From IMG/VR virus record IMGVR_UViG_2778261503_000006: a stretch of 64,000 nucleotides of DNA; one strand, 5' to 3'. Position 1 is the stretch's first letter, and every line of letters starts with the position of its first letter. The position numbers and the translations under genes were made by a program. Shown one piece after another: positions 1,698 through 62,908 of this stretch. The notes below the pieces were generated by a model. The model was given only the letters and a program-made list of their open reading frames with translations. It was not told where the DNA came from and ran no database searches. The stretch comes from a virus (taxonomy: Duplodnaviria; Heunggongvirae; Uroviricota; Caudoviricetes).

Positions 1698-1913
1698 TTC
1701 TTTTTCAAATAATGAAACGCCGCGTGGATGCCATTTATCGCACAAGATAGAGTGCATTTATCGCGCGGCGCATCATCATTTGTTGATATGCGAATGTATC
1801 CAATAAGCATATGTCTCCCTTGTATGCTAAGGATACGATCCTAGAAGATGTCCTGTAAGGAAATAACAAACTGACTAAGTTAGTGGCGCATTAGATGTTA
1901 TTTCTGGAGGGGT

Positions 1914-2240
1914 ATGTTTGCAGATTATGAAAATCTGGCTGTAGTAGTCATAACATCCCTACTAAGTGGAACCGGCGTATTCCTTCTCGGAGTTAGAGAC
2001 GGGCGCATTTCTGCGTCCCTGCTCAATCTTGCGAGTGAATTGTTTACTGCGGTAACAGCCGGGCTTGCGGGGTATGGGGTGGCGGTTAGCCAAGAATGGC
2101 CTGAAGGTATCATTTTCTGCGTTGTTCTGATTGCCAGTAACAACGGTAGTGAAATTTTACAGGGCTTGAAGTCCAGAGCTAGTTACGTCTTGAATCTCTT
2201 AAGCGTAATAGCGAATGGGGGAAAAGGTGGAGAGAAATAA
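1914..2240 (+). CDS. holin-like small membrane protein (LydA-like by position and size)
   Basis: 108 aa with three hydrophobic segments; first gene of the operon after the invertase, as lydA in P1 (synteny from memory). Confidence 0.5.
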   Translation: MFADYENLAVVVITSLLSGTGVFLLGVRDGRISASLLNLASELFTAVTAGLAGYGVAVSQEWPEGIIFCVVLIASNNGSEILQGLKSRASYVLNLLSVIANGGKGGEK

Positions 2241-2686
2241 TGGGTAACTTTGGAAATTATTTCATTTTTATCATGGCATTTGTTGCCATCATTGACCGTT
2301 TCATTTTTCGTCGCAAGAGTGTTGAGATTTTGAGTATTGGTGACGCTGTAGTGAAAGAATCCGCTATAGCATTTCCTGTTTCGCTACGTGTTAAGCGAAG
2401 CTGGGTCAGCAATGCTCAAATCGAATATTGGTTGCAAGACCTGAAAAATCCATCTGTGGTTATTTCAGGGAAAACGCGACCAGTTGACGCCTCAAAACGC
2501 GGTGAGAGAGAAGAGTATTTGCTCATCGATACGAAATATCTTGAGCCAACGAAGTGGGATCTGAAAGTCACATTGACTAACGGTAACTGCCGACTGAATC
2601 CGCTTTATCGCATTTTCCCTATCAATGACTGCATAGAGCGCCAGTTTACGATCGAAAAGCGTAAAGGAGACTGGGATGTCAAATAA
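2240..2686 (+). CDS. hypothetical protein (LydB-like antiholin by position and size)
   Basis: 148 aa, start overlaps the stop of the previous gene; synteny only. Confidence 0.4.
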   Translation: MGNFGNYFIFIMAFVAIIDRFIFRRKSVEILSIGDAVVKESAIAFPVSLRVKRSWVSNAQIEYWLQDLKNPSVVISGKTRPVDASKRGEREEYLLIDTKYLEPTKWDLKVTLTNGNCRLNPLYRIFPINDCIERQFTIEKRKGDWDVK

Positions 2687-3296
2687 GAATAATTATGTTC
2701 TTCTTAATTATGATGAGTTAAACGAAAAGGGGCTGGCAAAACTCGTCAAAGAAATCAGCAAAGGTGGTTACAAGATAGCGAGGGTGATCCCTGCAAGTAA
2801 TGGCAGGAAGAAAGATGGGATCATGACGCGCACGTTTACCCTTATTGGTATTGATGAACAGACAATGGAAGTTCAGGTTAACGATACCGGTGATATATCT
2901 GGGATCAAACTGAATGGTAAAACAGTACCGTTCAAGCCAGTAAAAACAATGTCGGCTTTGGGGCAATCTCTTGCGGCTTTATTTAATCGCGGAGCAACTT
3001 CTTTCCAGAAGTCATTAGCTCGAAAACTTGCTCGTGCAGCAAAAAATATTGATGACGGAAATAAGAAGCGGCAGGGAGTTAAATCTAACGCTCAGAAATT
3101 AGCTGAAGCGAAAGAATCACGTGATGCACTCCGTGAAGATATCGCTAATGCTAACGACAAACTGTCTAAACTCCAGAGCAAGTCAGACAAAGTAATGCAA
3201 GATACGGGTAACGTTAAAGCTGCCTTGTCTCAGGAAGTAGCTAAGACACGTGCTCTTAAAGAAGAAATCGCGCGCCTGGAGGATGAGCATGATTAA
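2676..3296 (+). CDS. Hdf-like protein (shares a module with the following DarA-like protein)
   Basis: 206 aa; central segment resembles a segment of the 3283..5214 product (beta-rich stretch then K/R-rich helical stretch). Confidence 0.45.
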   Translation: MSNKNNYVLLNYDELNEKGLAKLVKEISKGGYKIARVIPASNGRKKDGIMTRTFTLIGIDEQTMEVQVNDTGDISGIKLNGKTVPFKPVKTMSALGQSLAALFNRGATSFQKSLARKLARAAKNIDDGNKKRQGVKSNAQKLAEAKESRDALREDIANANDKLSKLQSKSDKVMQDTGNVKAALSQEVAKTRALKEEIARLEDEHD

Positions 3297-5214
3297 CAAT
3301 CCTTTACGAATTAATATTCAGTCTACTTTTGCTGATACGATCCCCGGCTATGTGCCAAGTCGCTGGTCTTCAGAAGAATTAAGCGAAGATGACCTGATTT
3401 TTGAGGCGGCGACCTTAGAAGATATTGAGCTTGCCTATATGGGCAATGAAATTCTGGTTGTGTCTGACGAAGCTATGTTTGAGTCCATAACTACAACCAG
3501 AATTCGGTTAGCTCAAACAATGCGAGCTTTCGTCCGTGCGCTGAATCGTGGCCTGAATGGTACGAATATTATGGCAGGGACTGATGAAGCCGGGACCGAT
3601 GAAAATGGACGTAATTGTATTGGTGGTGCGATTATCGGTCGTGTACGTCGGGTAGCTAATATCCCTGTTTTGACCGCGCAGATACCGCTTACTGACGGGC
3701 AGAGTACAAGCATAATTTTCCACTCTCCAACAGCTGACGGGGCAAAAATAAAGAGTAACGACGAGCTTGTTGCATTTCAGTTTTTACTTAATAAGCGTAA
3801 CGTAACTCACGTTGTCGCCCCGATTGGTGGGAGAGATGTTTCTTTAAGCCAGGTATGCCAGGCGCTATCTAATTTGATTGAGCGTAACAGCGAAAAATTT
3901 AAGAAAGCAAAAGAGCGCCAGGACAAAATGAAGGCAGATATTGAGAGTTATCTCAATGAAGCAGATAAACTGGCAGAAGAACGGTCAATAATGATTGATC
4001 AGGTGGACGTTGCGCAACGTGGGCTGACTGAAAAGCGTGCTGCTCTTACGGAGATGCAAAAAAAACTTGATGCCCAGAAAGCCATCAACGAGGAATTACA
4101 AGAAAAACGCGATAAATTGTTGTCTGCTAAAGGTGAAAAAACGAAGGAACGAGCGTTTAGTGACCAGCTGCGACATGTAAAACATAATCTTGCCATTGAC
4201 GGAAAAACAGTGCTGGATAATGGCGCTGAAGTTAATTATATCACGTCCGGCAGTGACAATTTCGTTACGATAGTAGCACCTGAAGGTAAATTCAGTATTG
4301 ATGCCAGTGCTGTCAAAGGAGGCAGTTTGGCAGATGCTGCAACCAAATTACTTAAAGCCTACCGAGAGCATAACGCAGATAAATATAAAGTTGATGTGTT
4401 ACCAGGCCAGCAGGAAGACCCCGAACCACCACAGACAGACCCCGAGACGAACCCAGTATCACAACCAGAGAGCCAGGATGTAGGTAAATACCACTATGCA
4501 CTTCAATCTCGCCCGGCTGGTGTTGGTGCTGTGCCGGATGGAAATAAAGCCGTGCTTGATCGTCCTGACCAGGCTGATCAGTATTACGAATATGCTCGTC
4601 ACGGTATCATTACGTATGACCGTAAACTGACAGATGAAGAAGTCAGCCAGTACGAGTTGCTCTATCTTCCTGATGAAGATGAGCTGAAAGATTTTGCAGG
4701 CCAATTGGTTGTGTCCAGCATGTCGAAACATATTGATGGCTATGTAGACCTGTTTGGCAGTGACCTGAAAACATTCAAGGCGCAAGTGAAAATTCTTTTC
4801 CGCAAAGCGTTTCCAAACGTGGCGTATCCACTTGGTGATGGGGAGAACCTTTTCATTATGGACGTGTATAACGCCCTTCAAAATCATTCAAGCGAAGTAA
4901 AAACAGAGCATGTGGTTGAGCCGGAATCACAACCACAACCAGCACCAGAACAGGAGCCGGAGCCAGAAGAAGCTGGTGAATCAGCAAGTGAAGCTGATCA
5001 GGAGGCAGATAAAGCACTGGAGTACCTGAAATCCGTGCCGGAGCAGTTTACATCCCGCGATCTGACGGTCATCAGTGCTGAACTTGATCATGTGCAGGAA
5101 GCAGCAAACGCTCTAATCAGCGCAGGTCGATACGACGAGAACGAAGCCACTGTTGGTGCAGCAGTTGACTACCTGATCAACATTCTGGCTGAAATTCAGC
5201 AGGGAGGTGCTTAA
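3283..5214 (+). CDS. darA: DarA-like antirestriction/head-associated protein
   Basis: 643 aa from ATG 3283 with GGAGGA RBS; size and operon position match P1 DarA as I recall it; acidic Pro/Glu-rich linkers. Confidence 0.5.
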   Translation: MSMINNPLRINIQSTFADTIPGYVPSRWSSEELSEDDLIFEAATLEDIELAYMGNEILVVSDEAMFESITTTRIRLAQTMRAFVRALNRGLNGTNIMAGTDEAGTDENGRNCIGGAIIGRVRRVANIPVLTAQIPLTDGQSTSIIFHSPTADGAKIKSNDELVAFQFLLNKRNVTHVVAPIGGRDVSLSQVCQALSNLIERNSEKFKKAKERQDKMKADIESYLNEADKLAEERSIMIDQVDVAQRGLTEKRAALTEMQKKLDAQKAINEELQEKRDKLLSAKGEKTKERAFSDQLRHVKHNLAIDGKTVLDNGAEVNYITSGSDNFVTIVAPEGKFSIDASAVKGGSLADAATKLLKAYREHNADKYKVDVLPGQQEDPEPPQTDPETNPVSQPESQDVGKYHYALQSRPAGVGAVPDGNKAVLDRPDQADQYYEYARHGIITYDRKLTDEEVSQYELLYLPDEDELKDFAGQLVVSSMSKHIDGYVDLFGSDLKTFKAQVKILFRKAFPNVAYPLGDGENLFIMDVYNALQNHSSEVKTEHVVEPESQPQPAPEQEPEPEEAGESASEADQEADKALEYLKSVPEQFTSRDLTVISAELDHVQEAANALISAGRYDENEATVGAAVDYLINILAEIQQGGA

Positions 5215-5582
5215 TGACCATCTCTGTTTTAGACCGCCTGAAATTAGGTAAAGAGCTATCAGATCTAATGCAGGCGCAGAAAACGGCGCCAGTATTGCAA
5301 CGCGTCACCATTGGTAAGCAGATTGTTGATGTGATGCTGAAATTGGGCTTGGGGACTGCCGCGCAACCGGCAGCGGAACCGCAACAACAGACTGATCCTG
5401 TTGTAGATGAAGTTCCTAAGATAGTGACTGACTTCCTGGGCGGTGTGTTCACAAAGTCCACACAAATGGAATTTATTGATGCGCTGCGTGGGATCTCAAA
5501 CTATGTTGGCGAGTTCCTTACGTTGGAACAGGCAAAAGAGCAGACCATAAGCTGGGTGAAAGCCAACGGTTATGCAGGGTAA
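5214..5582 (+). CDS. small protein (DdrA-like by position)
   Basis: 122 aa, ATGA start/stop overlap with the DarA-like gene. Confidence 0.4.
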   Translation: MTISVLDRLKLGKELSDLMQAQKTAPVLQRVTIGKQIVDVMLKLGLGTAAQPAAEPQQQTDPVVDEVPKIVTDFLGGVFTKSTQMEFIDALRGISNYVGEFLTLEQAKEQTISWVKANGYAG

Positions 5583-5675
5583 TCAAAGGGGCTGAAATGC
5601 CCCTTTCACTTTCCTGTAAGTCCATAAATCACACACTTTTTACACTTCCTGCTTTCTATGTAAGGGGAGTGTATT

Positions 5676-8600
5676 TTGAACAAGTCAGTTACTTCCGCGC
5701 TATCCGAAGCAGCAGACATTAACAGTGTTATTGCGCTGGTTTCTTCATTAGAGAGGCGAGAAACACGCCAGGGGCGCAGTAGTTACGTAGTCACCAGTAA
5801 AGGGGCAGAGGTAAAGACGGCTTTTAAGGTCGTTGATGCCAGCAGTCTGATCATTTCGAACAACCTTGACGGTACGATTAATCCGGCCTTCCCGGAAGAA
5901 CTCCAGCCACGTGACCGTACACGGCTATCAAGCAAACTCCAGGTTAACCGTATTGCCTCCAATTTACGCCCGGCACAATTAACGGATTCCGGCATGAGCA
6001 GCCACGGAGCGCCGATAGTTGGTCCGGACAACGTTGTTGAATCCGGCAACGGAAGGAGCATGGGTATCTGGCGTGCCTATGAGCAAGGGCAGGCGGATGA
6101 ATATCGCCAGTACCTGATCGATCATGCAAAAGAGTTTGGTCTGAATCCTGACGACATTTCACAAATGTCTATGCCCGTATTGGTGCGAGAAAGACTCACA
6201 GATGTAGACCGCGCACAATTTGCCCGCGATTCAAACATCAGCGATCTGCAAGAGATGGCTGCAAGTGAAAAAGCGTATGCGGATGCGCAATTTCTCACTG
6301 AGAGCGTCATGGCGCTATTTAATCCTTCAGATGATGGAAATCTACTGGCGCGGTCCAATGATGCGTTTATTCGTGCGTTTTTGCGCGAAATAGGTGATAC
6401 GGCGACGGCAGGTTTGCTTACTGCCGATGGGCGTCCAACGAAACAACTTATCGACCGCATCCAGAATGCAATTTTTGCCAAAGCGTACAAGGATGAAAGG
6501 CTTGTTCGGCTGGTGGCGGAAGAGCCAGATCCGGAAATGCGTAACATTCTTACCGCATTAAATACGGCAGCCAGCGATTTTGCGCAAATGCAGTCGCTTT
6601 CAGGTGATGTTCACCATGACACGGTAACCGGACTGGTAGACGGTATAGAGCAATTGAATGGTCTGGATAAACAGGCTATTGCCGCGCTACAGGAAGCAAT
6701 TAACCTTGTTCGTGAAGCAAAAGATAACGGTCAGGCAGTAGAAGAGGTGATCGCACAGCGTGGATTGTTTGGAGATAGCACTCCGGAAGCAGAAGCGCTT
6801 GCTCTGTTTATTGTTGCCAACAACCGAAGCGCTAAGCGAATGGGGGCAGCTTTCAAGAAACTGGCGCAAAAAATTAACGATGAACTTATTCACCAGCAAC
6901 AAGCGTTAGGCGATATGTTCGGCGGCGGAGATGTCGATCTGCGTAGCATTTTATCTGCCGTTTCTGATGAAATTGAGGCTGAGTATGGCGAAGGTAAAGG
7001 GCTTAATTTCGCCATGTTTGAATCGGTTTCAGGAGAGGTCGAACCATACATTTCAAAGCTAATTGCTGATGCGACCAGCGTGGAGGACTTGATCCGAATC
7101 GTGAAGGTGTCAGAAAAAATTAAGGAGTCCGCAAAAAAAATAAAGCGCAATGTATTTTTGGAACTTGGTTTTTATATTCGCAATGTCACCGTTAATGAGA
7201 TTAAGGAGTGGGCTAAACGTTATGGATACAGCGACGCTGTGTTAACAACGATGTTATTGTCTTATCAACGCAGCAATTTTTATGCTAACGCACTGCGTGA
7301 CGCGATTGAAAAAGGAGATGAAGCTCCTTCGCTCGCAGATGAAAGAAATATTGATTGTGATATTGAAACGTTTTGCAACATATCAGAAGAAGGCGTGCCC
7401 GCTGAACAATTTATACGTGTTTTACATAATGCAGCAAAACATATTCCTGATGACTTTAGTATTGATGAATTGCGCAATGGTTGTCTTGTTTGGTTAGGTA
7501 ACTATTTAAAATCTCCAGCGTCTATTGCAGAGAAAACAGCTTTAAGATTTAGAAAGGAAATGAATAAAGCTGGAAGCGCAGAAGAGATGGTGTGCATAAT
7601 CCAAAATACTTTGAAGTTATTCAAAAAGAGCTTGCATAATATCGACGATATTATGGCGGCTGGTAGGAAAATAACAGCCAGTGTCGGAGTTAGCTCTGAA
7701 CTAACGGCAGAGGAGATCGCTGATGCGTATATTGAGACACTTGTCAGGCTTAAGGAGATAGTGGAATTAGCAGAGCATTCCTCATATTACGGAATCAAGG
7801 AGCGTGTTGACTTTACTATAGAACAAATCAATAAAGTTAGGTCAAATAAGGAAAAACTCACTGACTACCTTGCTGAGGTTTTGCACCAGAATGATCATGG
7901 GATTGGATATGATCTGAAAAAAATGCTTGTTTTTAATCTGGACATACCGGAAGACTTGCAAGCAGAACTATATGAAATAGCTTCATTAACACGTGGACAA
8001 AAAGCCTATCCTAATGCGCTTGAAAATGTAGTACATAAAAAAGTCAGAGCCGCATTTGACATGATTCTTGAATCGTCAAATGTGTCACATGACCAGTCTA
8101 AGGAATGGAGTCGTGGGATTGCTATTTCTGATGAAGCAGAGCAGTTAAGTGGTCACGATAATGAAACTTTCTCCCGTAAAGCATACAGTATTCGCGAGAC
8201 GATTGAAAAAGCCTATATTATTTCAGGAGGGACTTTATCTACATTAAAAAATATTAACCACAAGAACAATGTTCGTGCTTTTGCAAGTCGAAATGGGAAT
8301 ATAACAATTGATGCTAATAGTGATCACGAGCGTGTATTATGGCATGAAATAGGTCACCATATAGAACATTCAAATCCCCATCTATTGGAGAGGGCCAAAG
8401 CCTTCATTAAATCAAAAACTAACGGTAAAGTTTCTTATCATAATATTGGTAGCCGTGGCAGTGCTGAGTATTTGGTGCGAACCGACCTAAGTCATGGATA
8501 TATGTCTAAAATTTATATGGAAAATACGGTAAGTTCTGTCAGCGGCAGATTTATATCAAAGCCACCTGCATTAAGCAATTGCAGGGCGACTGAGATTTTT

Positions 8601-8717
8601 TCTATGGCCTTGCAGATGTATGCCGATCCGGAGCAGGCGACTAACTCTGTATTAAACAATGACGGCGTGCTGGAATTTTTCTTGGGATGTATGAAGGAGT
8701 TGCAAAATGAAGTATAG
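5676..8717 (+). CDS. large virion-associated protein (DdrB-like by position) with AT-rich C-terminal HExxH metallopeptidase-like module
   Basis: 1013 aa from TTG 5676 with AAGGGGA RBS; GC drops visibly after ~nt 7100; WHEIGHHIEH at nt 8339-8368. Confidence 0.6.
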   Translation: MNKSVTSALSEAADINSVIALVSSLERRETRQGRSSYVVTSKGAEVKTAFKVVDASSLIISNNLDGTINPAFPEELQPRDRTRLSSKLQVNRIASNLRPAQLTDSGMSSHGAPIVGPDNVVESGNGRSMGIWRAYEQGQADEYRQYLIDHAKEFGLNPDDISQMSMPVLVRERLTDVDRAQFARDSNISDLQEMAASEKAYADAQFLTESVMALFNPSDDGNLLARSNDAFIRAFLREIGDTATAGLLTADGRPTKQLIDRIQNAIFAKAYKDERLVRLVAEEPDPEMRNILTALNTAASDFAQMQSLSGDVHHDTVTGLVDGIEQLNGLDKQAIAALQEAINLVREAKDNGQAVEEVIAQRGLFGDSTPEAEALALFIVANNRSAKRMGAAFKKLAQKINDELIHQQQALGDMFGGGDVDLRSILSAVSDEIEAEYGEGKGLNFAMFESVSGEVEPYISKLIADATSVEDLIRIVKVSEKIKESAKKIKRNVFLELGFYIRNVTVNEIKEWAKRYGYSDAVLTTMLLSYQRSNFYANALRDAIEKGDEAPSLADERNIDCDIETFCNISEEGVPAEQFIRVLHNAAKHIPDDFSIDELRNGCLVWLGNYLKSPASIAEKTALRFRKEMNKAGSAEEMVCIIQNTLKLFKKSLHNIDDIMAAGRKITASVGVSSELTAEEIADAYIETLVRLKEIVELAEHSSYYGIKERVDFTIEQINKVRSNKEKLTDYLAEVLHQNDHGIGYDLKKMLVFNLDIPEDLQAELYEIASLTRGQKAYPNALENVVHKKVRAAFDMILESSNVSHDQSKEWSRGIAISDEAEQLSGHDNETFSRKAYSIRETIEKAYIISGGTLSTLKNINHKNNVRAFASRNGNITIDANSDHERVLWHEIGHHIEHSNPHLLERAKAFIKSKTNGKVSYHNIGSRGSAEYLVRTDLSHGYMSKIYMENTVSSVSGRFISKPPALSNCRATEIFSMALQMYADPEQATNSVLNNDGVLEFFLGCMKELQNEV

Positions 8718-9000
8718 CATTGTGAGTCCCGCTGGGATTAGAGGGATTGTTGAATGCTCTGATGACGGCACATTGCGTATATTTGAAGGCGATATTTCGG
8801 AAGAAAATATTGCGCAAGATTTACGCTTTATCAACACAAATTCCGCAATGGGGATCGTGAATACCATTCATGCCGATGGGGTGTTTGTTCTGCGGAGCCT
8901 GGAAACTGTTGGCTGGGAGGTTGAGTGGCCAGAGGTGGAAGGAGATCCTGACGACGAAGACGATACTGGCGAATCATATCAAGACATTGATGTGAATTGA
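8707..9000 (+). CDS. small acidic protein, possible partner of the upstream C-terminal module
   Basis: 97 aa, overlaps the stop of the 1013-aa gene, Asp/Glu-rich C-terminus, followed by a terminator. Confidence 0.5.
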   Translation: MKYSIVSPAGIRGIVECSDDGTLRIFEGDISEENIAQDLRFINTNSAMGIVNTIHADGVFVLRSLETVGWEVEWPEVEGDPDDEDDTGESYQDIDVN

Positions 9001-9013
9001 TATGATTGATAAT

Positions 9014-9036
9014 CCCGCCGTCAGGCGGGTTTTTTT
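9014..9036. terminator. rho-independent terminator (hairpin plus T-run), shared by convergent genes
   Basis: cccgccgtcaggcggg followed by ttttttt. Confidence 0.75.
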
Positions 9037-9298
9037 AGCGTGGTGTAAGAATAAATTCAGGATGCTCTCCAGCAAGCAATAACAGGTACTCAAATTCACC
9101 AGCCATAAGGCGTCTCGGTTTATTTCTATCTTCTTTGAATTGCCAAGCCCGGAGTTGATACCCCATTTTGTGGGCTAACTCCGTTTGCGTTAGCCCCATT
9201 CGCTGGCGGATTTCAATTATAGTTTCCGGGGTGTTTGGTGGGAGTTGTTTCACAATATGCCCTTTGCCAATGCTGTGATTCGCAACGAAGTATATCAT
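9035..9298 (-). CDS. XRE-family helix-turn-helix regulator
   Basis: 87 aa; RQRMGLTQTELAHKMGYQLRAWQFKE HTH signature. Confidence 0.7.
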   Translation of the reverse strand: MIYFVANHSIGKGHIVKQLPPNTPETIIEIRQRMGLTQTELAHKMGYQLRAWQFKEDRNKPRRLMAGEFEYLLLLAGEHPEFILTPR

Positions 9299-9310
9299 CG
9301 TTGAATCGAT

Positions 9311-9613
9311 TCACAGAGCTGCGCCGAATAGACCGCAGCATGGCATCCCTTCATCACAGTACCTGGCCCATTCTTTTTGGCATTCTTCTGTTTGCGCGTA
9401 TTGGCTTAACGCGTCATCCAGCATATCCCAGGCCTTATAGGAATCCTCTGCAACGCTAAACAAAGTCCTGCCTTCCCGGCTTAGAATTTGCAGATTGTAA
9501 ATGTTTTCATTGCTCAGACATGCGCGGCTGATATGCATGTAAACCGACCATGCAGGAACTCGATTTTTGATAGCAAGTTGGTGTAATTTGGAATTAATTA
9601 AAGAGCTTTTCAT
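9311..9613 (-). CDS. hypothetical protein co-transcribed with the downstream HTH gene (possible toxin-like partner)
   Basis: 100 aa from ATG 9613 with GGAGA RBS; 13-bp gap to the HTH gene. Confidence 0.45.
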   Translation of the reverse strand: MKSSLINSKLHQLAIKNRVPAWSVYMHISRACLSNENIYNLQILSREGRTLFSVAEDSYKAWDMLDDALSQYAQTEECQKEWARYCDEGMPCCGLFGAAL

Positions 9614-9796
9614 GGGATTTCTCCGCAGCAAAGTGGTCAACTTTTTCAATCTTAATGCGCACAATGTGCATATTCAAGTTTTATTCTTCACTTTGTTACG
9701 AGAGGGGCCAGCCAATATTTCTAGTTGAAAAGATCCATCATCAAAAATCACATACTGATTATGCTGCCGCAAACTGAAAACATTTCGCGGTGACTC

Positions 9797-11479
9797 ATGG
9801 CAACGAAAGACAAAAACAAAGGCTTTCTGTCGGCATTGAAGAAAGCCTTCAACAGTGGCGATGTCACGCCTGCCGATCCGGTCGTTTTTACGAGCGGTCA
9901 TAGTGTCGTTGCGCGTTCTGGTCTGTCCGCTTTACGTCCGGGGATACTGGGTGGCAATAGCGATGGCATGACAAGCGCGGCAGATACAGTATCAATTTCG
10001 GCAGAACTGCCCGGCGACCGCCTGCAAAAGTACAACATCCTGGAAACGATGGCTAAAAGCCCGACTATCTCGACGGCTTTAAATATTCACATTGCACATG
10101 CGCTTGCGCCTTCAAAAAAAACCGGACAAGCATTCATCCTTTCGCCAAAGGATGGTTCCGATGCCGAGGCAGTAAGTAGATGTGAAGAGTTAACCGCTGA
10201 TTTGGGGACGATGATTAATGACGGACTTCCTTCATGGGCCATGATTATGGCGATCTTTGGGGTGTCTTATGTCCGACCTTATGCTGAACAGGGCAGGGGG
10301 ATAACAGGCATTGAGTCCAGTTATTACACTCTGCCACACTTCGTCCAGGAGTTTTATCGTGGTAGCCAGCTGGTAGGTTTCAGTGGTGATTACATTCTGG
10401 ATACGCATAGTTTGCGCAGAGTAATAACCGAACCGTGGAATCTGGTTTCCATGAAAAATCCCTATTGGACGCCACAGCATAAAGTTATTCCGGTTAGCTA
10501 CGGCACAAAAGGGTACTCACTGTTAAGTGATCAGGCTGATAAGCCGTTAATGGAGACGCAGAATTACGGAACTTCATTCCTGGAATACAGCTATGAACCT
10601 TACCTTAATTTATGTGCTTCGCTCGCCGCGCTGAAATCAACGCGAAATAATGCAGCCAAAATTGACCGCCTGATTGCTCTTACGACGAACACACTGGACC
10701 CGGTTAATGCGGCGAACTATACGCGTGGCGTCAGCCAGGCATTGAAGCGTCATAGTGACCTGGTGGCGCAAAGGTCGATTAATGCCAACGCTATTCCGAC
10801 TGTGCTTAACCATCTGATACCTGTTATGGGAGACGGGAAGAACGGCATCACCATTGATACGCAATCCATACCCGCAGATATCAGTGGTATCGAAGACGTT
10901 ATGTTTCACCTCCGGCAGCTTGCTGCAAGCCTCGGCATTGACGCAACAATGCTTGGCTGGGCTGATCAGATGAGCGGAGGGCTTGGAGAAGGCGGCTGGC
11001 AGCAAACTGCTATCCAGGCTGCATTGCGTGCGAACTGGATCAGACAGGCCGCCCAGCGAACTATTTATCGGCTTCTGGACATTCACCTCGCTTATAAATA
11101 CGGCAAGGTTTACACCGAAACAAACCGCCCTTATGACGTGCAATTCAACTCAATGAACACAGCTATCCAGGAAGAGGAAAACCGAGAACTGGATGCACGC
11201 GCCAACTTTGTTGCTGTCATCTCCCAAATTATGGACCAGATCCAGAACAACCCGAAACTGGCTGGTAGCGACGCGTTTATGCGTTATCTGTTCACTGAGC
11301 AGTTGCACATCGACGATGACACTCTCAACACCATGATCAAAGAGTTTAAGGCGAATGAATCAGAGCAAAACAACGAGCATGGTATGTACGAATCCGCGCC
11401 GTTGTCGTCCGGTGACGATCCGGAAAACTGGACGCCAGAACAGTTAATAAACTTTGCAAAATTTGTGATGAGCAATTAA
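9797..11479 (+). CDS. large structural/morphogenesis protein (portal-like by size and context; not confirmed)
   Basis: 560-aa ORF with strong coding signal; no diagnostic motif recognised. Confidence 0.55.
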   Translation: MATKDKNKGFLSALKKAFNSGDVTPADPVVFTSGHSVVARSGLSALRPGILGGNSDGMTSAADTVSISAELPGDRLQKYNILETMAKSPTISTALNIHIAHALAPSKKTGQAFILSPKDGSDAEAVSRCEELTADLGTMINDGLPSWAMIMAIFGVSYVRPYAEQGRGITGIESSYYTLPHFVQEFYRGSQLVGFSGDYILDTHSLRRVITEPWNLVSMKNPYWTPQHKVIPVSYGTKGYSLLSDQADKPLMETQNYGTSFLEYSYEPYLNLCASLAALKSTRNNAAKIDRLIALTTNTLDPVNAANYTRGVSQALKRHSDLVAQRSINANAIPTVLNHLIPVMGDGKNGITIDTQSIPADISGIEDVMFHLRQLAASLGIDATMLGWADQMSGGLGEGGWQQTAIQAALRANWIRQAAQRTIYRLLDIHLAYKYGKVYTETNRPYDVQFNSMNTAIQEEENRELDARANFVAVISQIMDQIQNNPKLAGSDAFMRYLFTEQLHIDDDTLNTMIKEFKANESEQNNEHGMYESAPLSSGDDPENWTPEQLINFAKFVMSN

Positions 11480-11492
11480 CCGGAGGGAAATA

Positions 11493-12491
11493 ATGCAATC
11501 ACTGAATACTGTTACGGATCGCTTCTCCCTGGTAGAGAAAATCCGCAAACACACACCGCAGAACAACCGAAATTACGTCATTCAGTCGGTACGAGACACA
11601 TTCAACTCGCCAGAAACAAAAGAGCGTATCGCGCTGGGTGAGATGTATGGTTATTACGGTCATGGTCGCCGGGCGATGCACTATAACAAAACGAAAAGCC
11701 TGAACTTGCCGGAAGTCTCTGTTGTGATGGTAGATGGGAAGCCTGTTGTATTGGAGAACGTGCCGTCAAACAGGACTATCGACATTTCGATTGACGACAA
11801 CGGCATTGTTACTCATACGCAGGAAATACTGGATACAGACACCGGGCGTATTGTTCAGGGCATGATTAATTCTGGTGCTGGTGGTTGGTCGTGGGCTACA
11901 TCTGGTCCAGATTCATCGGTATCCCTGGTAAAGTCTTTCCACGGCTTTGATTACGTAACTGTGCCTAACTATATCAGCCTCGACAAGAAAAGCCTGATGC
12001 TTGAATCAGCAGAAGAGCGCGATGCGGCTATTCATGCAGCACTTATCGAACAAGGTTTTACCGATAACGCTGCTACGGATCTGGTTCACCACTTTTCAGC
12101 AATGAAAAATCAGCAAGCCATGCTCGAATCTGCACATCGTGAAGCCCTGGAATCAGAATTGATGCTCCTTGAAGTGGAAAACATACAGCTTCGAGATAAG
12201 CTGCGCGCTCAAACAGCGATGATGGAAAGCCAGGGGGAAAATGCAAAGCAATACCGCCGGATTTTGCGTGAAGCTATCCAGGAAATGCCTGTTTTTATCA
12301 GCGCAGAACAGCGCCGGGCGCTCTGCCGTATGCAGTCTGAAGATGATGCCCGCATAGTGGCTGCGATGCTTGAATCTCTTGGGGCAAATGCTACTTATGG
12401 CTTACCGGTATCAGGCAAGAAAGAACCAGAGTTATCACCGAAGGAGAACAAAAACACTACCCCGTTACTCTTCGTTTCCAGAAGGGGGTAA
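11493..12491 (+). CDS. hypothetical protein with C-terminal coiled coil (head protease/scaffold-like by context; not confirmed)
   Basis: 332 aa, 14 bp downstream of the previous gene. Confidence 0.5.
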   Translation: MQSLNTVTDRFSLVEKIRKHTPQNNRNYVIQSVRDTFNSPETKERIALGEMYGYYGHGRRAMHYNKTKSLNLPEVSVVMVDGKPVVLENVPSNRTIDISIDDNGIVTHTQEILDTDTGRIVQGMINSGAGGWSWATSGPDSSVSLVKSFHGFDYVTVPNYISLDKKSLMLESAEERDAAIHAALIEQGFTDNAATDLVHHFSAMKNQQAMLESAHREALESELMLLEVENIQLRDKLRAQTAMMESQGENAKQYRRILREAIQEMPVFISAEQRRALCRMQSEDDARIVAAMLESLGANATYGLPVSGKKEPELSPKENKNTTPLLFVSRRG

Positions 12492-54413: not shown

Positions 54414-54719
54414 ATGCTCTATGCGGTTCCTCAGCAAGCTTCTGATTCTTTGAAGTTAATCAAGACTGTACTTCAGCTTATAGCATCTCAACAAGAAGTG
54501 TCACAGCAGTTAAAGTTACGGGTTTATGAGGTGATCAGAGAAGCCTCAAACTTAAGTGTAGATAAAGGTGATCAATTACAGATTCCTTCTCACAGAGAGT
54601 CCATCTCGCTCGCGGTAGAGATACGCCACACTAAGGCGCTCGCCCAGGTGCTAACCAAAGTAACTAGCGAAGATATGTTAGAACCCGTAATGGCCCGGAA
54701 TGTATTAGAGTACATTTAA
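54414..54719 (+). CDS. small helical protein, first gene of AT-rich three-gene operon
   Basis: 101 aa; ATG 54414 with AAAAGGAGGGG RBS. Confidence 0.5.
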   Translation: MLYAVPQQASDSLKLIKTVLQLIASQQEVSQQLKLRVYEVIREASNLSVDKGDQLQIPSHRESISLAVEIRHTKALAQVLTKVTSEDMLEPVMARNVLEYI

Positions 54720-55792
54720 TGCTTGCATTTACACAACTTACATTAGTTCGAAATAAGCTAAGGGAGATATCAGAATCTCCCTATTTTTCTAAAGACATGC
54801 ATGAATATCTTGCTGTTCTACAAGAAGCGGTAGATAAGCTCTATGAAAACCATGTGAATGTTGCTGATAAAATAATTGCGGATTGTACTTTTTTTATCAC
54901 CGATGCAGTTAATTTTTTCACTGGCAGTACTACAAAGAAAATTCCCTACGAGATTGTTTATTGCTTAAATGATGCCTGTAAAAAATGGATAAGTGAAAAA
55001 ACACTTATAACCACAGCCCTATCTCCAGATATGCATGGGTTTTATTTTAAGTCTGTAAACAAGAATTTGTATTCTTTATTTGATGAAGTTTTAAATGTCA
55101 AATTCGAGGTCGAATTAATTCAGATTTCATTACCTGAAATGTACAGAAGACGACCATTATGCTCTATACCTTTATATCACGAATTGGGACATTTCGTTGA
55201 TATTAGCAAAGGTATTTCTGAGCTTGCCTGTCTTAACTATCGTTCCAAGGACAAAGGCACACTTCCAGGACCAGAATGGAGTAATCTACCTGATGTTATT
55301 TGGATAAATCATTGCAGAGAATATTTTGCAGATCTATTTAGTGCCCAATTTATTGGAAAAAGTGGGGTAGATTTCTTATACAAATTAGCTGGCTCTCATC
55401 CTGCAAGCTATACTCACCCATCCACAGAAGATAGAGTTAAAATTGTAAGCGACTTTTTGAACAAAGTGGAAAATCCAGTTGTTGGCATGTTCAATGCTGT
55501 GATATCAGCCTTACATAAGGGTGGGCAGATTATTTCTCCTTGTTTGACATTGCCGACACCTTTGCTTGATGTGAAATCAGCTTTTGATAATGTGCGTCCT
55601 TTTGTTATTCGCGACCACAATGAAATGCATGCTTTTATTAACAGCAGCTGGCAGTACTTATGCTCTGAATGGGAAAAACCTACGGGTATATGGTCTGGGT
55701 TGTCAAAAGAAGCCATAGAAAAAACTATAAATGATTTGGTTGAAAAATCGATTCGAAACGTAATGATTCTTGAAAAATGGAGTGCACAATGA
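54719..55792 (+). CDS. HExxH zinc-metallopeptidase-like protein
   Basis: 357 aa; HELGH at nt 55178-55192; AT-rich; translationally coupled to both neighbours. Confidence 0.6.
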   Translation: MLAFTQLTLVRNKLREISESPYFSKDMHEYLAVLQEAVDKLYENHVNVADKIIADCTFFITDAVNFFTGSTTKKIPYEIVYCLNDACKKWISEKTLITTALSPDMHGFYFKSVNKNLYSLFDEVLNVKFEVELIQISLPEMYRRRPLCSIPLYHELGHFVDISKGISELACLNYRSKDKGTLPGPEWSNLPDVIWINHCREYFADLFSAQFIGKSGVDFLYKLAGSHPASYTHPSTEDRVKIVSDFLNKVENPVVGMFNAVISALHKGGQIISPCLTLPTPLLDVKSAFDNVRPFVIRDHNEMHAFINSSWQYLCSEWEKPTGIWSGLSKEAIEKTINDLVEKSIRNVMILEKWSAQ

Positions 55793-56406
55793 ATCTCCTA
55801 AGCAAAGCTGAATTGCTGCAATATTATGAATCAGAAGAACCTGAGTCGTTGTTCATTGAACCTCTTCTAAATAAAAACCAAATTGGAAACTTCACCATAG
55901 ACCTTAGACTTGGTTACGATTTTTTAGTGTCTATTATGACAAGGAAGCCGTCAATAGAGTTAATTCCCTCAAAAAACAATGATACTCATCAACCAATCAG
56001 AACATTTTTCCAGGAAACAAGGAGAGATCTTGGGGATAGGTTCATTGTTTACCCGAATCAAGTGGTACTGGCAACAACATTAGAATATGTTTGTTTGCCA
56101 CCAGATTGCTACGCTGATGTATTGTCCAGAAGCAGCTATACAAGGCTTGGTCTTTCATTAAATACCATGATACAACCAGGGTACAGAGGCTGTATATCTT
56201 TAGAGTTATTTAATCATGGGAATAGCCCTGTAGAACTTATTGTTGGATCTCGCATATGTCAAATTCGTATATTCAAGAATGAAACTGTCGGTGAATACAT
56301 AAGTCATGAGTCTCACAGGAAATATTTCGGAAATGTGAGGCCAACCGTCTCAGCAGCAGAAAGTGATAATGAATTAAATATGCTGGAAAAGATCCGACAA
56401 AAATGA
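55777..56406 (+). CDS. dCTP deaminase / dUTPase-fold enzyme (Dcd-like); alternative start ATG 55789
   Basis: IDLRLG, SSYTRLGL, PGYRGCISLELFN, GSRICQIRIF blocks align with E. coli Dcd. Confidence 0.7.
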   Translation: MECTMNLLSKAELLQYYESEEPESLFIEPLLNKNQIGNFTIDLRLGYDFLVSIMTRKPSIELIPSKNNDTHQPIRTFFQETRRDLGDRFIVYPNQVVLATTLEYVCLPPDCYADVLSRSSYTRLGLSLNTMIQPGYRGCISLELFNHGNSPVELIVGSRICQIRIFKNETVGEYISHESHRKYFGNVRPTVSAAESDNELNMLEKIRQK

Positions 56407-59111: not shown

Positions 59112-60297
59112 TTTCCTGAAAAACCAGGACGGGCGCTATATCACTGACGGCCTGTCCTCTAAGGACTTCACGCGTTTATTCGACCTTATCAGGAAAGAAC
59201 AAACCCGTAAGCGCCGACAAGCTCACCGGACGCTGACGCCAGGTAGACTGAGGAACAAATCCGCCGAAGATATTCTCAAGTTAGGGAAGAAAAAAGGCGG
59301 CACGTTCTTCACGCGAGACGACCTGAAAGGTTTCGAAAAGCTACGGAGTAAAACACGCGAAAAATATGACAGCAAGACGGCTGGCATCACATACGCCCAG
59401 CTGGTGGCATCCAGCCAGGCAATCGATATTAAGCGTGCAAATAACGCCGTGGATGACGGATCTGGTATCAAAAGAGCTACACCCGTATCTCTTCGCCACA
59501 ACGTGATTAATATCCGCGTAGAAGCATCGGATATATCCGTCCACCAGCACCATATCGTCCGGATACGCTTTGAAGAATGGGATCAGATGGTTGATGACAT
59601 CGCAGAAGACGATAAATCAGCTCTGAAAATCACTAAATCACTGTGCGCCGGGCGAGTGTCTTTCGATTGTGACTGTGGTCGTCATCAATACTGGTATCGT
59701 TACATCGCTACTGCGGGTAACTTTGCCCTGGCCCCGCCAAAAGAATACGCCTATCCAAAAGTTCGTAACCCTAAGCTACAAGGCGTCGCCTGTAAACACG
59801 TGATCCACTCAATGACGCGGTTACAGTCCGCAAGTTGGCAAATGAGTATTGCTCGTGCACTACAAAAGGCTGCAACGCAAATTGCATTTGGTGACGATCG
59901 CCGACGTACAACCAAACACTTCTCAAAAGAAGACGAGAAGGAGTTTAATCGCAATCGTAGCAGTAAAACGAACGTTGAAGCCGCCAAACGCGAATGGAGA
60001 CTCTATCAGAAGCGCCAGGCAGCTTTAAGTACAAAACTGGCAAAGGACAACGGCAAGATCGACAAACTACGTGACCAATTGACCAAGGCCAGAAAGTTGT
60101 CAGATGCACAGAAAAAACGGGCGGCAGCAAAAGAAGCGGCCTTGCAACGTGAGAAACAGAAAAACAAGGAGCTTCAGCAACGCCTTGCCGATCAGTTCGC
60201 ACTGAAGAAGCAGGCGTTCATTGATGCGCTTGTCATGGCTGGAACACCACCAGCACAAGCTGAAAAAATGTTCATGGAGTATGTAAAAAAAGCATAA
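59104..60297 (+). CDS. SWIM-type zinc-finger protein with K/R-rich coiled-coil tail
   Basis: 397 aa; FDCDCGRHQYW...(x30)...CKHVIH fits CxCxnCxH. Confidence 0.5.
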   Translation: MPDFLKNQDGRYITDGLSSKDFTRLFDLIRKEQTRKRRQAHRTLTPGRLRNKSAEDILKLGKKKGGTFFTRDDLKGFEKLRSKTREKYDSKTAGITYAQLVASSQAIDIKRANNAVDDGSGIKRATPVSLRHNVINIRVEASDISVHQHHIVRIRFEEWDQMVDDIAEDDKSALKITKSLCAGRVSFDCDCGRHQYWYRYIATAGNFALAPPKEYAYPKVRNPKLQGVACKHVIHSMTRLQSASWQMSIARALQKAATQIAFGDDRRRTTKHFSKEDEKEFNRNRSSKTNVEAAKREWRLYQKRQAALSTKLAKDNGKIDKLRDQLTKARKLSDAQKKRAAAKEAALQREKQKNKELQQRLADQFALKKQAFIDALVMAGTPPAQAEKMFMEYVKKA

Positions 60298-60330
60298 ACC
60301 ACACATAGCCTAGCTGCCTAGGCTAGGCTT

Positions 60331-61059
60331 TCATCTTTTTGAAAAATCAATTTCCGTTTTATCAAATAAATTTGAAATATCAGCAACCAATTTATTAAAA
60401 TCATGATCGCCATTATAAAGCGAAGTCTTCTTTATTGCCATTACAAAATCATATAACTTTTCTGGGGAGTCAATACCAACCCCTCTACTTTTAAAAAGCT
60501 CAATGATAACTCCAACATCATCATATAATAATTTTATTGCCGCCATAATCTCTTTTTGCTGCCTAAGCAATCTCTCAAGTTCATTTTTATTTTCATCCAT
60601 AATTCTTTTGTTGAATTGTGTATCATTAATACTTTTTATTATTTCAGTCTCTTTTATTTGCAACGCCTTTCTTTTATTTTGATCCATGTCGGCATCCAAA
60701 TACCTTATCTCTGTATATATTTTACTTGTTAGCTTTGATACGCAAAGAGTGACAATCGGAGCTGCAATTGATGCAATAATTCCAAAAATAAATGGCAAGC
60801 AAAAATGATAAAACCAAGGAGACAAAACGCCTTCATAAACTAGAGGAATCTTACCTCCAACAAATGTTACAGATAAAGTATATAGGATATCATCCTTTGA
60901 CTTCATCAATATTAGTATATCTTTCCAATTAATAATTAGAAAAGAAATGAATATATATGCAAACACTTTATTAAAAAGCTTGTCTTTTATGGCATCTCCA
61001 AAAGATACTTTGATTAGATCATTTTCAGTCAATTTTTCTGTTGATGAATCTGTATTCAT
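60331..61059 (-). CDS. AT-rich membrane protein, candidate abortive-infection/exclusion protein
   Basis: 242 aa; two hydrophobic helices (VFAYIFISFLIINW; FCLPFIFGIIASIAAPIVTLCV) then coiled-coil tail; very low GC. Confidence 0.5.
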   Translation of the reverse strand: MNTDSSTEKLTENDLIKVSFGDAIKDKLFNKVFAYIFISFLIINWKDILILMKSKDDILYTLSVTFVGGKIPLVYEGVLSPWFYHFCLPFIFGIIASIAAPIVTLCVSKLTSKIYTEIRYLDADMDQNKRKALQIKETEIIKSINDTQFNKRIMDENKNELERLLRQQKEIMAAIKLLYDDVGVIIELFKSRGVGIDSPEKLYDFVMAIKKTSLYNGDHDFNKLVADISNLFDKTEIDFSKR

Positions 61060-61198
61060 ATAAACTACCGTGATTTCTAATATCTATTTTATGAAAATTC
61101 ATTTCCGGTTCGTTATCGAACATCGGTTCGACCGCACGCAGTGCGGCCTCATAATCTTGTTCTGTACGGATAGATTTAATGTTCATTAATTACAAAGG

Positions 61199-61225
61199 AA
61201 AGCCCACTTGCTAAGTGGGCTTTTT
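61199..61225. terminator. hairpin plus T-run between minus-strand genes
   Basis: aaagcccacttgctaagtgggcttt followed by tttt. Confidence 0.6.
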
Positions 61226-61242
61226 GTATGTGTTTTACTATA

Positions 61243-61581
61243 TCAGGCTGCTTTTTTATTCAGGTTCCGCTGAGAAATAAATTTTTCAGCAGTATTGATA
61301 CGACTTAACTCTTCCTGAACGCGCATATCATTTTCGACTTCCCACAGGTCTACTGCGGTCTGAAGATTAATCCAAAAATCTACAGAAGTATCGAATGCTT
61401 TTGCCAGGCGATATGCCATATCCATCGTTAGCTTACGATTATTATTAACAAGAGCACTTACGGTGTTACGATGAACATGAAGTATTTCTGCTAACTCGTT
61501 GATCTTCAGCTCTAACGGCTCCAGGTATTCGTACAGCAGGATATCACCTACGGTCGTCGGTTTTCTGGTTGCCTGTTTCAT
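61243..61581 (-). CDS. higA: HigA-family antitoxin (HTH)
   Basis: 112 aa; ILLYEYLEPLELKINELAEILHVHRNTVSALVNN HTH. Confidence 0.8.
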   Translation of the reverse strand: MKQATRKPTTVGDILLYEYLEPLELKINELAEILHVHRNTVSALVNNNRKLTMDMAYRLAKAFDTSVDFWINLQTAVDLWEVENDMRVQEELSRINTAEKFISQRNLNKKAA

Positions 61582-61651
61582 TTTTTGCCCTTACTAGCGT
61601 GCGTATTAAGTGGACTCTGGTCAGAACCCGGTCCGTAACCGGGTATCTGTT

Positions 61652-61954
61652 TTAGTATTTGTGAGGGTCGAGATACAAGTCCTCGGCCTTTCCGTTAACC
61701 CACCTAAAAATTAACCTATATTGCTTATTCACCCTTACTGATGAATAGCCATTTAGCTTCCCTGACAGTTCCTCATACCGATTACCTGGTGGTGATCTTA
61801 AATCCTTACAGGTAGTTGCGGCATTGATAATGTCCAACTTCCGTGACAATGTCATATGAATATCAGGAGGTATCTTTCTATGTGGTGTTGAAAATTCAAA
61901 AAAATCATCAAGCCACGCATCCCTGAAATCCTTTATGTTAATTTTTTTGGTCAT
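61652..61954 (-). CDS. higB: HigB-family toxin (RelE/ParE superfamily)
   Basis: 100 aa; GNRYEELSGKLNGYSSVRVNKQYRLIFRWVNGKAEDLYLDPHKY matches HigB C-terminal pattern; toxin-first order. Confidence 0.8.
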   Translation of the reverse strand: MTKKINIKDFRDAWLDDFFEFSTPHRKIPPDIHMTLSRKLDIINAATTCKDLRSPPGNRYEELSGKLNGYSSVRVNKQYRLIFRWVNGKAEDLYLDPHKY

Positions 61955-62116
61955 TAGTCATTTGATCCTCCGTGATGATTACCGAATGCCATAACTATAG
62001 CGCACCGTTGCACTGTGCGCAAGTGCATTTTATGAATTCCCCCTCCTTCATCCAAAATCACAATCTCCAGAAAATCTTCCTTTCGATACCTGACAGATCG
62101 ACCTTTGAGGATGCTT

Positions 62117-62908
62117 ATGGGCCGTTTTGACGAATGGTTTGCTGACGATGCAAACCTGGCAAGTAAGGAGTCAGAACATGACAGCACGCAGAGAGAAACG
62201 CCAGCGCCGATTGAAGCGAATGCAGGAGGCGCGCCGGAACATGGCAATACCGGTTCGGATTCATTCAGCATTCTGGAAGAGCAACCCGCCGCCAAAGCTG
62301 ATAGCCATGATAATTTTGCTGATAGCAACGGTGGCCTTACTCCGGATGCTGGCGAATCAGATATAGCCATACTTCCATCTTCCCTGGCTGGCAGAGAACC
62401 GACTCCACAGTTAAAAGCACGCTATAACGGGCATAAAGCCTTTAACGACCAAATCCGCGCAGACTGGATGCTGATTATTGAATCCAGCCCAGACGCGTTT
62501 CAGGCTCTCTTATATCGACCAGATGTTGGCACATATGGGGTAGTCAGCGACGAAACAGGAGAAGAGTCATTCACCGAACTGGATAACAACCAACGCGAAC
62601 TGACTTACCAGGAACCTGAAATCGTTTATGTGCTGGATAACCCTGACGGGCGTGACTCTTTCCATGCGATTGACGCAGACGGTGAGCAGGATGGCTTAAC
62701 CGATGATGTTCTGATTCTGCGTATTGCAGCAAATAACGTCCCCGTCGGCTCAATTCTTGAATGGAATGAAGAGATGGTAAACGGCGTAGCGCGCCGCTGG
62801 TGGTACGTGCACCGTATTTTTAGCTACGGCACACAGCATGTTGGTTCGCTTTACTACTGCATACCTGCCAGGAATTTTGATACGACTCAAAACGGAGTGA
62901 TCGAATGA
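62117..62908 (+). CDS. hypothetical acidic protein (possible virion protein)
   Basis: 263 aa from ATG 62117 with GAGG RBS. Confidence 0.45.
   Translation: MGRFDEWFADDANLASKESEHDSTQRETPAPIEANAGGAPEHGNTGSDSFSILEEQPAAKADSHDNFADSNGGLTPDAGESDIAILPSSLAGREPTPQLKARYNGHKAFNDQIRADWMLIIESSPDAFQALLYRPDVGTYGVVSDETGEESFTELDNNQRELTYQEPEIVYVLDNPDGRDSFHAIDADGEQDGLTDDVLILRIAANNVPVGSILEWNEEMVNGVARRWWYVHRIFSYGTQHVGSLYYCIPARNFDTTQNGVIE

Follow-up and report, generated by a model that had tools for sequence, protein, structure and literature searches.

We analyzed a 64,000-nucleotide (nt) stretch of the virus record IMGVR_UViG_2778261503_000006, hereafter called the window, in which a long open reading frame (ORF) of 1013 amino acids (aa) is followed by a small acidic one. 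The window is a D6-like, P1-related phage-plasmid, and the two ORFs correspond to ddrB-hxr, the canonical pair of the late operon, in its full-length form. The features at the locus are:

5676-8717, plus strand: ddrB, 1013 aa, TTG start, stop codon TAG at 8715-8717; full-length orthologue of phage P1 DdrB
5676-7022, plus strand: conserved N-half, aa 1-449; ~95% nt-identical to phage D6, 65% aa-identical to P1
5799-6194, plus strand: DdrB-like ParB superfamily domain, aa 42-173 (Pfam PF18763, E 1e-41)
7023-8009, plus strand: hypervariable middle region, aa 450-778; AT-rich (GC content 0.37-0.40), no family assignment
8010-8714, plus strand: predicted zincin-like metallopeptidase (MPTase) domain, aa 779-1013
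8340-8369, plus strand: WHEIGHHIEH, the HExxH zinc-binding/catalytic motif, residues 889-898 (H890, E891, H894 and the near-invariant E897)
8514-8594, plus strand: Tyr947 (8514-8516) and Glu973 (8592-8594), invariant in a 33-sequence alignment
8694-8699, plus strand: Shine-Dalgarno sequence AAGGAG of the hxr-like ORF, within the ddrB 3' end; 7-nt spacer to the ATG at 8707
8707-9000, plus strand: hxr homologue, 97 aa, isoelectric point 4.05; globular part (aa 1-78) and a disordered acidic tail
9014-9036, plus strand: intrinsic terminator, CCCGCC-GTCA-GGCGGG followed by T7; end of the darA-ddrB-hxr transcription unit

A preliminary description of this DNA had called the product of the long ORF DdrB-like, and the comparisons agree. 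BLASTP aligns the protein collinearly with P1 DdrB (995 aa; 44% identity, residues 4-1011 against 2-993), the identity to gp116 of Cronobacter phage JK004 is 45%, and the match to phrog_2299 (E = 0) covers window residues 12-1012 and profile positions 10-994 of 995. The gene order holin, LydB-like, Hdf, DarA, DdrA, DdrB, ..., portal agrees with phages D6 and P1: ddrB sits after homologues of hdf, darA and ddrA in the late lydA-lydB-darA operon (the annotations of D6 and plasmid pB2C_96 fit the ORF order of the window), and the Pfam matches DarA_N and DarA_C fall on 3250-5214. Both coding sequences (1013 and 97 aa) are annotated in RefSeq on pB2C_96, an E. coli plasmid that is 100% identical. 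Overall, we think it probable that the locus is the known DdrB-Hxr module, present as a divergent allele, and not a foreign graft. Within the N-half an antisense ORF of 141 aa (6122-6547, minus strand) corresponds to iddB of P1, with 64% identity over 98 aa; its conservation may merely mirror that of the ddrB coding strand opposite.

In P1 the GenBank record already labels DdrB "possible metallopeptidase", and Iyer et al. described the protein in 2017 as a DdrB-ParB domain with a C-terminal zincin-like MPTase (PMC5512222). DdrB is found in P1 heads, where 39 peptides were detected (PMC9024508). Its packaging depends on DarA/Hdf and it aids the incorporation of DarB, which is known only for P1 (PMC9024508, PMC12810830). 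A processed form of 76 kDa has been reported and the MPTase was proposed as autoprotease (PMC5512222). Both ddrB and hxr are non-essential in P1, and their knock-downs show no plating defect (PMC10695390).

The base-composition shift that had been noticed within the 1013-aa ORF is present: GC content amounts to 0.494 for 5676-7021 against 0.391 for 7022-8717, and a single change point within the ORF fits best at nt 7114 (z = 6.0). The AT-richness of the rear half is matched by only 4.5% of equal-length windows in the 64 kb. Also the HExxH motif was correctly recognized, although its position, given earlier as 8339-8368, was one base off. The 97-aa ORF overlaps the ddrB TAG by 11 nt and is indeed strongly acidic (23 D/E against 5 K/R residues). 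The terminator behind it, likewise noted before, has six G-C pairs, a 4-nt loop and T7 and is the top-ranked terminator-like site within 5400-9900.

The two parts of the ddrB rear half differ in how far they can be assigned. The middle region shares 19-38% aa identity with other long DdrBs, although the N-halves are 65-86% identical; an SRP19 Pfam match at aa 661-738 was dismissed because it is below the gathering score. For aa 779-1013 the predicted structure shows the zincin core fold, a beta-sheet with flanking helices. Here the HExxH motif falls in helix 107-121 of the model, the first of two conserved C-terminal helices, and E973 (in a 'TEVFSM' motif) lies at the start of the next core helix, 196-205. 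Residues R867, H890, E891, H894, E931, Y942, Y947, E973 and S976 are invariant in the 33-sequence peptidase alignment, and the block around the motif is conserved (LWHELGHHLEYSNP in P1, LWHEIGHHIEHSNP in the window and LWHEVGHHLEFSNP in JK004). Glu973 would likely serve as third zinc ligand; it fits the definition of an HExxH motif plus a helix-borne Glu (PMC5512222). According to the model, aa 779-1013 is a zincin metallopeptidase with an intact H890-E891-x-x-H894 ... Y947 ... E973 site, and the intact residues suggest that it is catalytically competent. The preliminary description had named a non-peptidase helical repeat as the alternative for the HExxH region. This alternative is refuted, since the zincin fold is supported and the peptidase residues are invariant, and the peptidase assignment holds.

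A phmmer search with aa 779-1013 against 1.84 billion representative proteins yielded 164 relatives of the peptidase. They carry ddrB-ParB, MuF, portal, InPase, DarA_N or ADP-ribosyltransferase (ART) domains, which is the polyvalent-protein setting known from the literature. Profile searches with the peptidase and Hxr alignments against PDB sequences gave no meaningful match, and Pfam, NCBIfam and PADLOC contain no family for the ddrB C-half, for Hxr or for two minus-strand ORFs further downstream.

The boundary inside ddrB that the preliminary description had placed in this area is real, near nt 7022-7114. Of 118 related plasmids, about 114 behave like phage D6: the homology ends at ~7021 and resumes at ~9745, just before the portal gene, which delimits one more feature:

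7022-9745, no strand: segment present or absent in comparison with D6-type phage-plasmids, comprising the ddrB C-half, hxr and the two minus-strand ORFs

This segment is present in only 4 PLSDB plasmids. Most D6-like relatives encode a short-form DdrB of 454-461 aa, which is ParB-only and comes without Hxr; next comes either the portal gene or a pair of unrelated genes. Past an identical "...MFE" the short forms diverge at once, in three different ways. Given this shared point of divergence and the loss of homology at ~7021, there is a sharp module boundary in DdrB at ~aa 449 (nt ~7022).

Two comparisons bear on how the segment was exchanged. Plasmid pTB423 (NZ_CP034790.1; our locus L088) differs from the window within 1900-12250 only in a D6-type patch at 5501-6750, which has 72 differences; here a tract of the ddrB N-half was recently exchanged by homologous recombination. 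Phage D6 (our locus L001) is >99% identical in the flanks and ~6% diverged at 4751-6900, comprising the darA 3' end, ddrA and the ddrB N-half. Such a 'halo' of divergence beside the indel suggests that the whole patch 4751-9745 stems from a different D6-like lineage. Based on the pTB423 patch and the D6 halo, the segment has therefore moved among D6-like elements by homologous exchange, which is still no grafting of a foreign domain.

A graft was nevertheless what the preliminary description had proposed: a foreign, AT-rich HExxH effector recently joined to a short ParB-only DdrB, bringing its own acidic chaperone or inhibitor gene. The sharp drop of D6 homology at nt ~7021 with the GC change point at 7114, the presence of the segment in only 4 of ~118 D6-like plasmids and the distinct history of the patch 4751-9745 in comparison with the D6 backbone are all in line with this idea. 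However, the same architecture (N-half, peptidase C-half and then an Hxr homologue) is found in P1 DdrB, JK004 gp116, P7 and 80 out of 80 IMG/VR relatives. These 80 loci encoding the C-terminal domain represent 29 distinct variants, all of which belong to one MPTase family, and no unrelated toxin domains occur among the alleles. Moreover, the endings of the short forms, with three sequences after the same 'MFE', resemble repeated truncation or replacement. The identities of individual IMG/VR relatives (numbered with an L) and of the P1 type to the window are:

L011: N-half 86%, C-half 46%
L016: N-half 77%, C-half 42%
L014: N-half 78%, C-half 40%
L015: N-half 66%, C-half 32%
L017: N-half 62%, C-half 30%
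P1 type: N-half 64%, C-half 28.5%

Ranking the relatives by either half gives a near-equal order, which speaks against a graft and fits a shared history in which the C-half has the faster clock. The same gradient is seen when relatives are compared with each other:

P1 against JK004: N-half 90%, middle 30%, peptidase 45%
L014 against L016: N-half 91%, middle 48%, peptidase 60%

Linker, peptidase and Hxr evolve several-fold faster than the N-half and are acquired or lost together, as one block. Also the GC drop is family-wide and in that respect no sign of a graft: the C-half lies below the N-half in every lineage, by 0.03-0.08, the drop of 0.105 in the window being the largest. The preliminary description had set its graft against the case that all DdrB homologues carry the same C-half. 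The P1-type long forms do so, and the only exceptions are the truncated D6-type forms, for which a derived state is the simplest view. The simplest reading takes the long DdrB, with its fast-evolving rear half, as ancestral and the short D6-type forms as derived. The AT-rich C-half and hxr would then be a fast-evolving unit common to all long DdrBs that recombines as a block, and most D6-like relatives would have lost it, leaving the ParB-only DdrB of 454-461 aa. Judged by the collinearity with P1, the grafting of a foreign effector appears largely refuted, and we regard it as very improbable.

Turning to the acidic partner, the 97-aa ORF shares 41% identity with P1 Hxr (P1_gp021, 102 aa; phrog_2292; E 3e-16) and 50% with JK004 gp115; hxr of P1 likewise overlaps the ddrB stop by 11 nt. 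With 40 clusters among 5.8 billion proteins, none of them having a Pfam domain, the Hxr family is small, and its named matches and phage records all are Enterobacterales P1-like elements. Every member is acidic with a poly-D/E tail. A homologue of 96-107 aa overlaps the ddrB end in each of the 80 IMG/VR loci with this C-terminal domain, and among phage records Hxr is confined to those of P1 type, which match the DdrB C-half as well; both are missing from D6. Pairwise identities of Hxr track those of the peptidase (r = 0.93) more closely than those of the N-half (r = 0.65), in a set of 8 lineages with non-independent pairs, where a few close pairs drive the result. Hxr behaves as an obligate companion of the peptidase, and the tight coupling of the small acidic ORF to the ddrB rear half that was suspected earlier is thereby confirmed. 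Whether it acts as a partner of the peptidase, be it inhibitor or chaperone, is nearly an even call in our estimate.

The P1 GenBank note assigns Hxr a different role ('possible repressor; homolog of Xre', from 28% identity over ~58 aa), in which case an Xre-like transcriptional repressor would lie after ddrB by chance. The structure model of Hxr, built from database homologues, has a beta3-alpha-alpha-beta fold; domain searches gave no match to a helix-turn-helix (HTH) family and there is no HTH protein among the structural neighbours. The annotation of the P1 protein is thus unsupported by the model and by the family searches. We disfavour the repressor reading: an Xre-type repressor is very unlikely here, to the point of carrying hardly any weight. 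The genuine XRE-like gene near ddrB is a minus-strand ORF at 9035-9298 and not hxr.

Being very acidic, small and encoded in an anti-restriction operon, Hxr might also be a DNA mimic or another direct anti-restriction Dar protein that works independently of the peptidase. Its charge, however, sits in the disordered tail and offers no rigid DNA-like surface, and structurally the protein is unlike Ocr- or ArdA-type mimics. Furthermore, Hxr is absent from the text of the P1 virion proteome paper, where DdrB is abundant (PMC9024508), and it is lost along with the peptidase half while the remaining Dar genes are kept. We regard a direct anti-restriction role as very improbable.

For the mode of action of DdrB, we infer a course of events along the lines that Iyer et al. 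proposed in 2017. If P1 is a guide, DdrB would be made late, loaded into the head in a DarA/Hdf-dependent manner and be present in virions, reportedly as a processed form of ~76 kDa. The most likely substrate of the peptidase would be DdrB itself or the co-packaged Dar proteins, with cleavage in the course of assembly or after injection; autoprocessing of DdrB we put close to but not above an even chance. The Hxr homologue would be translationally coupled to the ddrB end and, most likely as dedicated inhibitor or chaperone, restrain the peptidase in the producing cell.

Several points weigh against this account of a native DdrB-Hxr pair. The GC drop in the window exceeds that of its relatives and therefore leaves room for some horizontal history from a lower-GC lineage. 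The halo at 4751-6900 gives the whole patch a history unlike that of the D6 backbone. To these come the small number of lineages behind the Hxr co-variation, and the fact that both cleavage of DdrB by the peptidase and binding of Hxr to it are steps that we infer.

Small genes next to related peptidases were also observed outside the P1-like elements. The third-ranked BFVD structural match to Hxr (template modelling score ~0.5, not significant) is gp181 of Vibrio phage VAP7, which is mis-annotated as 'tetraspanin-15'. Its gene directly follows one for a protein of 1207 aa that has a relative of the DdrB peptidase at its C-terminus. Phages Bakedbeans, YC and GR28A have small genes homologous to VAP7 gp181 in the same place, with an overlap of 11 nt in Bakedbeans. 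The Vibrio phage small proteins (88-130 aa) are encoded at:

VAP7 (L089): 4010-4282
Bakedbeans (L090): 2997-3263
YC (L091): 2913-3305
GR28A (L093): 2431-2823

Among 79 IMG/VR loci that are more distant, the peptidase forms the end of 30 proteins, and 27 of these are followed by an abutting ORF of 85-135 aa. The majority of these ORFs (22 of the 27) belong to one mostly acidic family, the carriers including MuF and portal fusions. Over IMG/VR loci L094-L173 one mostly acidic family of 86-135 aa occurs in 35 loci, directly downstream of peptidase proteins with MuF, portal or unassigned domains, and it is commonest where the peptidase is C-terminal (22 of 30). No significant mutual homology was detected between the Hxr, Vibrio-phage and IMG/VR small-protein families (hhalign probability ~1%, hmmsearch), and a ~150-aa tail after internal peptidase domains, tested as a fused partner, gave no match. 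The pattern across peptidase carriers is a lead, not a finding.

These loci also bear on a reading in which DdrB is an injected effector and Hxr its immunity protein, in the style of polymorphic toxins. The peptidase would cleave a host target (e.g. a defence or restriction component), Hxr would protect the producer, and the resulting arms race would explain the hypervariability of both. The conserved N-terminal delivery part, the hypervariable C-terminal enzyme, the small ORF over the stop and the co-varying partner fit such a system, as do the MuF and portal fusions in which the same peptidase family is C-terminal and is followed by a small ORF in 27 out of 30 cases, 22 of them from one mostly acidic family. 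In contrast to polymorphic toxins, however, every allele has the same peptidase family and no unrelated toxin folds occur. Knock-downs of ddrB and hxr in P1 plate normally (PMC10695390), the reported role of P1 DdrB is helping DarB incorporation (PMC9024508), and the small-partner families are without detectable mutual sequence homology. We consider a host-directed effector with immunity protein unlikely.

Returning to the companion role of Hxr, it is conceivable, and we propose it tentatively, that the DdrB peptidase half and Hxr are a co-evolving enzyme-inhibitor (effector-immunity-like) pair and one case of a wider undescribed rule. If true, peptidases of this family at the C-terminus of head-packaged proteins would nearly always precede a translationally coupled protein of ~85-135 aa, with ParB-like DdrB, MuF, portal fusions and large Vibrio phage proteins as carriers. 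The concept of carrier, enzyme and small ORF is itself not new, given the work of Jamet et al.; no mention of it was found for DdrB-Hxr.

The remainder of the segment 7022-9745 holds the two minus-strand ORFs:

9035-9298, minus strand: XRE/HTH_3-like ORF (weak match); RefSeq has an XRE family regulator at 9035-9199
9311-9664, minus strand: hypothetical ORF of 100-117 aa, upstream of the XRE-like ORF

These ORFs (9035-9664) occur only in the 4 plasmids with a long DdrB, and the pair resembles a toxin-antitoxin layout. Elsewhere in the window, the preliminary description had pointed to a 357-aa protein at 54719 as sharing the core L-[YW]-H-E-[LI]-G-H with DdrB. The motif is there (LYHELGH), but the likeness goes no further than the motif: a two-sequence BLASTP finds only a shared 12-residue stretch (E 0.084), which does not amount to a relationship. 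The protein is encoded in an AT-rich cassette of three overlapping or abutting genes at 54414-56406 (plus strand); the other two are a 101-aa ORF and a gene for a dCTP-deaminase-like protein of 209 aa (PF22769, E 1e-30). There is no family match for the 357-aa HExxH protein. In appearance the cassette resembles an accessory or defence-type module, but no PADLOC model fits it. AT-richness in the window peaks at 59301-62400, with a minimum GC content of 0.356 over 1.7 kb.

Summarizing, the result for this locus corrects its interpretation: what appeared to be a "mosaic effector" is the standard P1 DdrB-Hxr architecture. New are the module boundary and the hypervariability behind it, the notion that Hxr is no repressor, and a possible small-partner rule for the peptidase. 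This is of relevance to research on the P1 Dar system and on phage-plasmids, and the idea of a peptidase with a dedicated partner can be tested directly in P1, a tractable phage model.

Compared to known systems, P1 DdrB (P1_gp022, 995 aa; annotation by Lobocka et al., analysis by Iyer et al. 2017, PMC5512222) shares with the window protein the operon position, the DdrB-ParB domain, the HExxH zincin domain, the length class and the 11-nt overlap with the next gene. The aa identity is 65% in the N-half, 19% in the middle region and 40% in the peptidase; the GC content of the C-half is 0.39 in the window against 0.48 in P1, and the backbone of the window is D6-like and not that of P1. Hxr of P1 is homologous to that of the window, with the same position and overlap, an acidic tail and a GW..WP motif, and differs in the sequence of the tail. 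The short DdrB of phage D6 (orf25, 454 aa) is encoded in the same operon with ~95% nt identity over 5676-7021, but in D6 the middle region, the peptidase and Hxr are missing and orf24 and orf23 take their place. The counterpart of D6 orf24 is annotated as DUF4145 on a near-identical plasmid, while in other short-form plasmids the portal gene comes directly next.

With respect to the enzyme, no Pfam peptidase family matches the window DdrB, and its structural neighbours are gluzincins of the anthrax lethal factor, PPEP and MtfA type at 9-15% sequence identity; the MPTases of polyvalent proteins were placed in their own clades by Iyer et al. (PMC5512222). The MuF polymorphic toxins (Jamet et al. 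2017, PMC5576092) have a similar layout, with a head-packaged carrier, a C-terminal enzyme and a small ORF directly downstream. Metallopeptidases make up 20% of their C-terminal enzymes (PMC5576092), and relatives of the window peptidase occur fused to MuF. In the window, however, the carrier is a ParB-like DdrB, and alleles of its type share one enzyme family rather than many.

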